A DNA stretch of 3,657 nucleotides, from the IMG/VR virus record IMGVR_UViG_2534681938_000039; one strand, 5' to 3'. The DNA comes from a virus. Its lineage: Duplodnaviria > Heunggongvirae > Uroviricota > Caudoviricetes. A program made the position numbers and the translations under genes. Shown here one piece after another: positions 703 to 3,657 of this stretch (its first letter is position 1; every line of letters starts with the position of its first letter). The notes beneath the pieces were generated by a model. That model was given only the letters and a program-made list of their open reading frames with translations. It made no database searches and was not told the origin of the DNA.

Positions 703-823
703 CTGCTACGATTCTCCCTTAGTGCTTCTAATGGCTCCTAATGGCTAATTATTGCCTAAAAGGATAACTCCAGAAGCACAACATTTCACACTATCAGCAA
801 GAAATTACGCAATCGGAGTAATT
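703..823. promoter_or_regulatory. Immunity switch region between divergently oriented cox and C; expected to hold the early (Pe) and repressor (Pc) promoters and the C operator
   Basis: 121-bp AT-rich intergenic region between the two start codons, containing a tandem direct repeat. In P2-family phages the two promoters and the C operators lie in this interval. Exact -35/-10 elements could not be assigned confidently by eye. Confidence 0.6.
727..746. repeat. Tandem direct repeat, 10-bp period (TCTAATGGCT / CCTAATGGCT); candidate C-repressor operator half-sites
   Basis: CTAATGGCT occurs at 728..736 and again at 738..746, a perfect 9/9 match. P2-family C repressors are known to recognise direct rather than inverted repeats. 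Confidence 0.5.
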
Positions 824-1123
824 ATGTCAATAGACGTTTCGGAGAAGTTGAAGCTAATCCGTGAATCTGAAAGGTTAAACCGTAAAGAATTCAGTGAATT
901 AACTGGTGTAGCCTACAGCTCACTTTCGAGCTATGAGAGCCGGTCAAAAAACGCTGGAGTTGAAGCCATAATGAAGGTCTTACAACATCCTAGATTTACT
1001 AAATATACTTTGTGGTTCATGACTGATCAGGTAGCTCCAGAAGCCGGGCAAATTGCGCCCGCTCTCGCACACTTTGGGCAAAACGAAACAACGTCGCCCC
1101 ACTCCGGTCAAAAGACTGGTTAA
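824..1123 (+). CDS. C: C-type immunity repressor of a P2-family phage, 99 aa, helix-turn-helix
   Basis: ATG at 824 with GGAG SD (815..818); TAA stop at 1121..1123. HTH-like segment (LNRKEFSELTGVAYSSLSSYESR). Same length and position (immediately upstream of int, same strand) as P2 C. The ORF track's 123-aa version starts at an upstream TTG (752) inside the operator region and is less likely. Confidence 0.8.
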   Translation: MSIDVSEKLKLIRESERLNRKEFSELTGVAYSSLSSYESRSKNAGVEAIMKVLQHPRFTKYTLWFMTDQVAPEAGQIAPALAHFGQNETTSPHSGQKTG

Positions 1124-2401: not shown

Positions 2402-2443
2402 TGAACCGCCCCGGGTTTCCTGGAGAGTGTTTTATCTGTGAAC
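2402..2443. repeat. Terminal inverted repeat region of the IS element (orfB-proximal end)
   Basis: Begins with TG and reads TGAACCGCCCCGGG..., which resembles the terminal repeat I recall for IS629-type elements. The partner repeat is outside the window, so the inverted-repeat relationship cannot be confirmed here. Confidence 0.65.
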
Positions 2444-3334
2444 TCAGGCTGCCAGATCATCGTTTCCGATGGAAGCATAATAAGCTTTTTCTGCTTCTGC
2501 CGGAGGAGTATGGCCCAGCCTTCCCAGCAATCGTCGATTGTTATACCAGTCCACCCACGTTAGTGTGGCCAGTTCCACTTCTGCACGGTTTTTCCAGCTC
2601 TTACGGTGTATTACCTCCGCTTTGTAAAGACCATTGATGCTCTCAGCCATCGCGTTGTCATACGAGTCGCCTGTACTCCCTGTTGATGCCAGTAATCCGG
2701 CTTCTTTTAGTCGCTCCGTATAGGCCAGTGACACATACTGAGAGCCTTTATCGCTGTGATGGATGGTGCCAGACGGACGACGGGCCCACAACGCCTGCTC
2801 CAGCGCATCCAGCACGAATGTCGTTTCCATAGACGATGAGACCCGCCACCCCACGATGTATCCGGCAAACACATCAATGATAAACGCCACATAGACGAAG
2901 CCCTGCCATGTGCTGACGTAAGTAAAATCAGCCACCCACAGCTGGTCAGGTCGTTCTGCCACGAACTGACGGTTTACGCGGTCGCCTGCGGCAACGGCTT
3001 TCCGGCTGATGGTCGTACGGACCTTTTTACCCCGGAGAACACCGGCAAGTCCCATAACCGCCATGAGACGTGCCACTGTACATCTGGCCACCCTGATTCC
3101 TTCCCGTAACAACTGACGCCAGACTTTACGCACACCGTACACCTGATGATTTTCATCGTATACGCGCTGTATCTCTCTCTTCAGCCAGTCGTCGTGCTGC
3201 GCACGGGCACTGCGTTTATCCGGATGATGTCGCTGTTGCTGACAATGGTAATACGTTGACGGGGCAATATGCAGTTCGCTGCATACCGGTCCGACCCCGT
3301 ACTGCTCACGCAGCTTATCCAGCAGTGGCATCAT
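2444..3334 (-). CDS. IS3-family transposase OrfB (DDE / integrase-core catalytic domain), 296 aa as an independent ORF; normally expressed as an OrfAB fusion
   Basis: Carries the D, D, 35-residue, E triad typical of IS3-family transposases: D in WVADFTYV, D in [10 protein letters not shown] in [18 protein letters not shown] stop at 2444..2446. Confidence 0.95.
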
Positions 3335-3657
3335 TTTTTCCAGAGGCGGTCGAACTCCGCCTTCGCAAAATAAGCGGAAGCCTGGCGAAGGATATCGTTA
3401 CTGCGGCGCAGTTCACGATTTTCACGTTCCAGCTCTTTCAGACGCTGACGTTCAGCGCTGGTGAGCCCACCATCACCGCCCCCGGTATCCCGCTCATGCT
3501 GGCGAACCCAGACACGCAGAGTCTCCGGCGTACAGCCAATCTTTGGGGCAATGGAACAAATTGCCGCCCACTGTGAGTCATATTCATCCTGACTTTCCAG
3601 AACCATACGAATCGCCCGCTGACGGACTTCGGGGGAAAAACGAGTATTTTTAGTCAT
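3331..3657 (-). CDS. IS3-family transposase OrfA (HTH and leucine-zipper-like N-terminal part), 108 aa
   Basis: Protein [26 protein letters not shown]... with a heptad-like [20 protein letters not shown] segment. Its TGA stop (3333..3331) overlaps the OrfB ATG (3334..3332). The start codon occupies 3657..3655, the window edge. Confidence 0.95.

Follow-up and report, generated by a model that had tools for sequence, protein, structure and literature searches.

A probable P2 Hy dis-type immunity switch at the end of a P2-like prophage: tandem repeats beside cox as probable cox-boxes over Pc, and a candidate C operator elsewhere

Comparison of the cox-C region with those of related phages suggests that the window (the whole stretch of DNA analysed, 3,657 nt) carries a developmental switch of the P2 Hy dis type. 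In this switch the C repressor would bind two 8-bp half-sites at 813-820 and 839-846, and the tandemly repeated CTAATGGCT, lying beside cox, would provide cox-boxes over the promoter Pc. We consider this combined reading likely.

The window is the end of a P2-like prophage. Its minus strand carries the 5' part of gene B, which runs off the window and reaches to 249, orf78 (246-416) and cox (427-702, 91 aa; Pfam Phage_Cox, 1.7e-42), while its plus strand carries the gene for the C immunity repressor (824-1123, 99 aa; Pfam HTH_3; PDB 2xcj/2l49, P2 C, 2.5e-39) and int (1238-2251). The genes were taken from the list of open reading frames and from Pfam, with annotation transferred from ON470606. 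The first-pass annotation had recognised a P2-family cox/C developmental switch here, correctly, with cox and C placed around a 121-nt intergenic spacer at 703-823. An attachment-site arm follows 3' of int, and then an IS3-family element from 2402 onward. Escherichia phage vB_EcoM-720R8 is the closest deposited phage (99.9% identity over 427-1123), positions 1-2404 are found at 99.9% in many E. coli O157:H7 chromosomes, and a C protein identical to that of the window is encoded on 50 IMG/VR contigs. An identical C was also observed on a 7-kb contig of a MAG labelled Bacillota (JAEYGZ010000011.1), where the spacer has two substitutions and the first 70 Cox residues are present, the cox frame diverging after residue 70; most likely the contig is chimeric or rearranged, or is contamination from Escherichia.

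The Cox protein, the C protein and the 121-nt intergenic region are identical to those of the defective P2-like prophage which sits between ogrK/yegQ and yegR in E. coli B REL606. According to PMC11126057, P2 Hy dis received its immunity region from the defective P2-like prophage of E. coli B. The primer A3-44 (CCTTTCAGATTCACGG), with which the operator of Hy dis was amplified (PMC1904268), has a match free of mismatches at 859-874, in the variable part of C. The C protein of the window shares 64 of 99 residues with P2 C (64.6%), and Hy dis C is reported to be 63% identical to P2 C (PMC1904268); with WPhi C we computed an identity of 49.5%, the reported figure for Hy dis and WPhi being 44%. 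Identity to P2 C is concentrated in the C-terminal half (42/47, against 22/52 in the N-terminal half), and the distinctive N-terminal half pointed out by the first-pass annotation is therefore real. In the alignment Tyr36 and Arg41 of P2 C, which are among the residues proposed for base contacts (PMC2995052), are both replaced by Ser. Since the N-terminal half differs in this way, the phage should be heteroimmune to P2.

The Cox protein, lytic repressor of Pc and directionality factor of excision by type, is closer to its P2 counterpart (PDB 4lhf), with 76 of 91 residues identical (83.5%), and it carries Glu33, the residue reported for Hy dis Cox (PMC3936717). The same paper gives position 25 as Thr in Hy dis Cox and as Pro in WPhi Cox. 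In a global alignment anchored on GK...AV we observed Thr24-Pro25 in the Cox of the window and of E. coli B, and Pro24-Glu25 in that of WPhi; the residue numbering in PMC3936717 is probably off by one.

Within the part compared with P2 (127-1402), only 550-1045 is divergent, with a sliding identity of 38-85%; elsewhere identity is at least 90% and mostly 97-100%. Because this stretch runs from the N-terminal part of cox through the spacer and over the first two-thirds of C, it has the make-up of a classical immunity-module substitution and can be regarded as a heterologous immunity module. For membership of an immunity class, PMC3448106 asks for a C protein at least 95% identical to that of the class prototype. 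The C protein studied here is 100% identical to that of the E. coli B donor prophage, and the class prototype record is AJ306907; we assign the switch to the P2 Hy dis / E. coli B immunity type through the donor prophage, the primer and the reported identities, rather than through the prototype AJ306907. The immunity class is distinct from that of P2 but already known. The suggestion of the first-pass annotation that immunity specificity might be distinct thus holds with respect to P2, and gives way to the Hy dis type on account of the E. coli B prophage identity and the A3-44 match. The developmental switch of P2 Hy dis was reportedly described by Renberg-Eriksson et al. in 2001 (Virology 290:199). 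Experimental work on it has included promoter mapping, mutagenesis of the operator, EMSA and SPR (PMC1904268, Henriksson-Peltola et al. 2007). This type of switch, characterised from 2001 to 2007, is common in E. coli (strain B, many O157:H7), and no new biology is implied by its presence.

The repeat that had been singled out in the first-pass annotation was confirmed: CTAATGGCT is found exactly at 728-736 and 738-746, with a single C between the copies, and reads as AGCCATTAG twice on the cox-coding strand. Tandem Repeats Finder reported 724-746 with a period of 10, 2.3 copies and 92% matches, and a repeat search returned GCTTCTAATG/GCTCCTAATG at a spacing of 10. When the 121-nt intergenic region was put through 5000 mononucleotide shuffles, only 2 of them contained a 9-mer that recurred exactly at a distance of 9-11; the repetition is non-random. 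The two copies are, however, only part of a longer array which the first-pass annotation missed. They form units 2 and 3, in the middle of four units phased at exactly 10 bp over 719-756: TTAGTGCT (719-726), TAATGGCT (729-736), TAATGGCT again (739-746) and TTATTGCC (749-756). An Rfam scan gave no match in the cox-C switch. Around the array we also observed an 8-bp perfect inverted repeat, GTGCTTCT/AGAAGCAC, at 722-729 and 772-779 with 42 nt between the arms. We rejected it as a structural element; by a rough estimate a region this large would yield about as much by chance, and in some loci 777-779, within the right arm, is polymorphic. The inverted repeat is probably due to chance.

A sigma-70 consensus scan of 600-950 found no promoter, in agreement with the first-pass annotation, which could not call the Pe and Pc boxes by eye. 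Since the Pe -10 (TAATTT) and the Pc -10 (AATTAT) both deviate from the consensus, we placed the promoters by homology to the annotated P2 record AF063097. In that record Pc adjoins cox, and Pe, O1 and O2 adjoin C, the Pe -35 TTGACA overlapping the C start codon. The annotation was carried over through a MAFFT alignment of 31 distinct cox-C switches, including P2 and the window. It puts the putative Pc -35 equivalent, TCTAAT, at 727-732 (ATGAAT in P2) and the putative -10 equivalent, AATTAT, at 747-752 (TATAAT in P2 and many relatives), both on the plus strand. With these positions the copies of CTAATGGCT would cover the Pc -35 and the spacer. By homology the Pc transcript is predicted to start near 759, which agrees with P2, where the start found by primer extension is some 50 nt away from the first codon of cox (PMC1904263).

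The array at 719-756 aligns with the P2 Pc region GAATTGCG/TAATGTCT/TAATGCCT/TTAGTGCC. The P2 array is placed alike, beginning some 17-25 nt away from the start codon of cox, it shares the 10-bp phasing and the overlap with the Pc -35 and -10, and its units are of a like type (P2 TAATGTCT and TAATGCCT, compared with TAATGGCT in the window). The P2 Pc promoter and its array of cox-boxes are said to have been treated by Saha et al. in 1987 and 1989. According to Berntsson et al. 2014 (PMC3936717), cox-boxes are 10-11 bp apart, overlap both the -10 and the -35 of P2 Pc, and seed a filament of Cox that has one protomer for each helical turn; at a target, 70 bp or more are protected by Cox. The P2 consensus cox-boxes TTAAACGCA, TATAAGACA and TAAAAGGCA lie on the cox strand at 600-627 of locus L001, over the Pc -10. 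At 719-756 we find the 10-bp spacing and the overlap with the Pc -10 and -35 expected of cox-boxes, beside a cox gene of the Phage_Cox family.

The match to the cox-box consensus itself, TTAAA(G/C)NC(A/C), is poorer. The tandem units have 3-4 mismatches in the phased register, and only the flanking minus-strand units at 723-731 and 753-761 come within 2. The consensus is too degenerate for a search, with 100 matches in the window at up to 2 mismatches, and because of this noise we used the scan only for the register of the P2 boxes and for the two flanking units. Published P2 Cox sites hold at least 6 boxes, and only four units are clear in the array studied here.

Conservation of the array was then compared with that of the rest of the spacer. 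Across the 31 switches the cox-proximal 50 nt have an autocorrelation of 0.49 at lag 10 and 0.51 at lag 20, against a background of about 0.23; in the C-proximal half of the same switches this periodicity is absent. The cox-adjacent block with the repeat is recognisable in every C type of the alignment, a typical relative having TTTAATTGCTCTTAATGGCTTATAATTGCCTTTAATG and P2 having ATGAATTGCGTTTAATGTCTTATAATGCCTTTTAGTG. Within the divergent module, identity to P2 peaks locally at 724-763 (0.65, versus 0.38-0.45 for the operator part). Among 54 loci of the C type of the window, counted as those sharing an identical C N-terminus, no site varies in 703-776. In the L009, L006 and L108 types, which have other C helices, the cox-proximal identity is 0.73-0.78 and the C-proximal identity 0.45-0.58, the latter being at the random level. 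The phasing is hence family-wide and independent of the C type. Its position at Pc, its persistence across C recognition helices and its invariance in the 54 loci together indicate that the array is most likely a Cox operator, that is, a set of cox-boxes over Pc.

These observations bear on two other explanations of the array. The near-perfect duplication could be the product of recent slippage, or a chance repeat, and have no function. In favour of this, the corresponding two units are less alike in relatives (for example TAATTGCT/TAATGGCT), which makes the 9/9 identity specific to this lineage. Against this, the exact repeat was matched in only those 2 of 5000 shuffles, both units have homologues at the same positions in the 31 distinct switches, so that no change of length accompanied the duplication, and the array is free of polymorphism among the 54 loci while 777-801 varies freely. 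We regard a functionless repeat as highly improbable. Alternatively, the phased units could be intrinsic elements of the Pc promoter or of DNA shape (repeated TAAT, -10-like motifs, phased A/T runs, curvature) with no dedicated protein ligand. This would be consistent with their overlap with the Pc -35 and -10 equivalents, with their A/T-richness at a 10-bp phase and with the poor match of units 2 and 3 to the cox-box consensus. On the other hand, the homologous P2 stretch is described as overlapped by cox-boxes, with the protection by Cox noted above (PMC3936717), the array is conserved well past the promoter hexamers, and the same unit type recurs in arrays across genera. We consider such a ligand-free role unlikely, and it is in any case compatible with binding of Cox.

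On the C side of the spacer, the Pe -35 TTGACA (825-830, minus strand) falls within C codons 1-3 and has the position of the annotated P2 Pe -35. The corresponding ATGTCAA at 824-830 is present in all but one of the 31 distinct aligned switches, and its conservation over all the C types is 95-96%. For the Pe -10 we predict TAATTT (802-807, minus strand), 17 bp from the -35, which is the geometry of the annotated P2 Pe; the Pe transcript would start near 795. The Hy dis C operator consists of two direct half-sites of 8 bp, which flank the Pe -35 and whose centres are 26 bp, or 2.5 helical turns, apart (PMC1904268, PMC2995052). Its O2 has a natural point mismatch, the operator is bound by C, and its mutation makes Pe refractory to repression (PMC1904268). 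In a scan of 780-880, TCGGAGTA (813-820) and TCGGAGAA (839-846), both on the plus strand, were the sole 8-mer pair with at most one mismatch at a spacing of 26; the pair flanks 825-830, and its single mismatch matches the reported natural point mutation. The described sequence features of a Hy dis-type operator are thus present in this pair (8-bp half-sites, 26 bp apart, flanking the Pe -35, one mismatch). The first half-site lies in the Pe spacer, overlapping the Shine-Dalgarno sequence of C, and the second lies inside C codons 6-8. An 8-mer pair of this kind arose in 20 of 5000 shuffles, and part of the repeat is constrained for other reasons, since GGAG of 813-820 is the C Shine-Dalgarno and TCGGAGAA encodes a widely conserved Ser-Glu-Lys. 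We place the candidate C operator at 813-820 and 839-846, about 80 bp from the tandem repeat.

The block 802-823 (22 nt), which holds the predicted Pe -10 and the first half-site, is 85% conserved within the RSKNA-helix type and 37% conserved against other C types. The RSKNA-helix set comprises prophages of Kluyvera, Citrobacter, Trabulsiella, Scandinavium, Huaxiibacter and Enterobacter MAGs which share the helix ...SYESRSKNA.... Identity of the C-proximal DNA follows the N-terminal identity of C (r=0.59, p=0.0005) and not that of Cox (r=0.10). Identity of the cox-proximal DNA, in a correlation of the Mantel type, goes with the N-terminal identity of both C (r=0.55) and Cox (r=0.43), which does not discriminate between the two because the genes are linked; only the C-proximal half gives a clean result. 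Between the two promoters, 777-801 appears to be an unconstrained spacer and is a hot spot of polymorphism. This 25-bp stretch between the predicted Pc and Pe start sites holds 11 of the 15 variable sites among the 54 loci, and it is merely 45% identical within the C type across genera. The stretch homologous to 777-801 holds O2 in P2, and it appears unconstrained in the window.

With the two ends of the spacer characterised, we can return to the proposal of the first-pass annotation that the copies of CTAATGGCT are half-sites of the C operator, their spacing (10 bp) perhaps defining a particular, possibly distinct immunity class. The annotation was right that repressors of the C family bind direct repeats (PMC1904268, PMC2995052), the repeat is statistically non-random, and C is reported to autoregulate Pc in P2 (PMC3448106). 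However, the half-sites of known C operators are 22, 26 or 34 bp apart, centre to centre, and flank the Pe -10 or -35 (PMC1904268). The CTAATGGCT copies have a spacing of 10 bp, lie inside Pc, about 55-80 bp from the Pe -10, and have no sequence similarity to TCGGAG(T/A)A. Moreover, the phased array is kept together with unrelated C recognition helices and unrelated C-proximal DNA (L009, L006, L108), and the pair which fits the published Hy dis operator exactly lies elsewhere, at 813/839. At 728-746 we thus find a direct repeat, of 9 bp, as in a C operator, but not the spacing, the flanking of Pe or the covariation with the C helix. The repeat lies outside the Pe elements under the control of C, the Pe -35 at 825-830 and the predicted -10 at 802-807, a location which the first-pass annotation had itself named as speaking against its proposal. 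We conclude that the repeat is very unlikely to be the C operator. The more general point, that the C type and the geometry of its operator define an immunity class, is true, but it was attached to a repeat which is not that operator.

The candidate operator falls within the known range of P2-family operators. P2 (class I), WPhi (class III) and the window all have direct-repeat half-sites by Pe and a dimeric HTH_3 repressor of 97-99 aa. They differ in the geometry of the sites: ATCTAAAC twice, 22 bp apart, around the -10 in P2; 10-bp sites, 34 bp apart, around the -10 in WPhi; and TCGGAG(T/A)A twice, 26 bp apart, around the -35 in the window. Both P2 and the window have the Pe -35 TTGACA within the opening codons of C; in WPhi TGTCAA lies immediately upstream of the C start codon. 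The likeness to P2 Hy dis consists in the C type as assigned above, in a candidate operator whose 8-bp half-sites stand 26 bp from each other on the two sides of the Pe -35, and in Cox Glu33; the two differ in origin, P2 Hy dis being a laboratory hybrid and the switch of the window belonging to a natural prophage beside an IS element. A further parallel is found in phage 186, where Apl, at pR-pL, is likewise a directionality factor and lytic repressor, and where PMC7498355 describes its binding to direct repeats that are one helical turn apart and lie between convergent promoters. Phage 186 differs in its immunity repressor (CI, 196 aa), in the architecture of its switch and in the distant subgroup to which its Cox/Apl protein belongs. 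In an additional locus, the prophage L025 (Rahnella sp. S5-11, NZ_JBKEZJ010000004.1), we observed two copies of GATCTAAAC at a spacing of 22 bp directly upstream of C, which is the sequence and spacing of the P2 O1/O2 half-sites. The C recognition region of that locus is P2-like (IPYGSLTYYETGRSTP), and the N-terminal half of its C is only about 40% identical to that of the C studied here.

The array itself differs from that of P2 in some respects. Units 2 and 3 of the window are identical to each other and deviate in the 5' half of the consensus (TTAGG/TAATT versus TTAAA), and the recognition-helix region of Cox reads KTPRAVRGMIEK in the window and KSTGAVRRMIDK in P2. It is conceivable that the lineage-homogenised CTAATGGCT boxes and the altered recognition-helix region of Cox form a Cox-operator specificity of their own, such that P2 Cox would fail on this array and the Cox of the window would work on P2 sites. 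We hold this to be a speculative and rather improbable extension. If true, the switch would have, in addition to C immunity, a second level of specificity that is asymmetric. At the other end of int, 2213-2358 is identical to P2 in 146 of 146 positions, covering the 3' end of int, the P' arm, the Cox site and the core (at 2330-2357 of the window, by the P2 annotation), and beyond the core the identity ceases. From this identity we take 2213-2358 to be an attR-type junction. The Cox-binding site of the P' arm (2241-2314) is 100% identical to the site annotated in P2, and for excision the Cox of the window must therefore be able to use boxes of the P2 type. This agrees with the reported complementation of a P2 cox3 prophage by the Cox of Hy dis (PMC3936717). 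Separately, Tandem Repeats Finder reported an 11-bp tandem, AGTGTCCACAC, in 1.9 copies at 2222-2242; it falls on 2217-2243, where by the P2 annotation Int binds the P' arm.

Taken together, the switch may operate as follows. Two convergent promoters would lie in the cox-C spacer, Pe directed leftward into cox and Pc rightward into C and int. In the lysogen, C dimers on 813-820 and 839-846 would block RNA polymerase at the Pe -35, and Pc would stay open, so that C and Int are made. When the level of C falls, Pe would fire, cox being the first gene made, and Cox would polymerise on the phased units at 719, 729, 739 and 749, one protomer per helical turn, and occlude Pc. Synthesis of C and Int would then stop, the lytic state would be locked, and Cox at the att arm (2241-2314) would direct excision. 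The Pc and Pe transcripts would overlap over roughly 759-795, as in P2. In this scheme we infer the binding of Cox at 719-756, the exact promoter hexamers and the start sites from homology.

If the array is indeed a Cox operator, the helical-turn repeats beside cox in P2-family switches belong to the lytic regulator and Pc, and not to the immunity repressor. The immunity half-sites would be inconspicuous by comparison, the 8-mer pair being partly hidden here in the ribosome-binding site of C and in codons 6-8, and assigning an immunity class from the obvious repeat would lead to misassignment. What the comparative set brings out is a block of 22 bp that covaries with the C recognition helix, next to a stretch, 777-801, that is free to drift.

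A few observations concern the surroundings of the switch. The E. coli B REL606 prophage (NC_012967.1, 2100409-2122347) is defective, with partial genes for D, tail tube, virion morphogenesis and portal, and it carries a cargo block of an AAA ATPase, 'ABC-three component system' proteins and a glycosyltransferase. Among 5,426 complete E. coli genomes there is none in which 80% or more of the window is covered at one place, and the junction of prophage and IS element is therefore absent from that collection. The IS3-family insertion sequence occupies 2402-3657 on the minus strand, with orfA at 3331-3657 and orfB (rve, HTH_21) at 2444-3334. We presume that its transposase resembles that of IS629/IS1203. 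The terminal repeat of the element starts at TGAACCGCCCCGGG, 44 bp past the att core, and an ALIL frameshift pseudoknot was detected within the element at 3260-3376 (121.5 bits).
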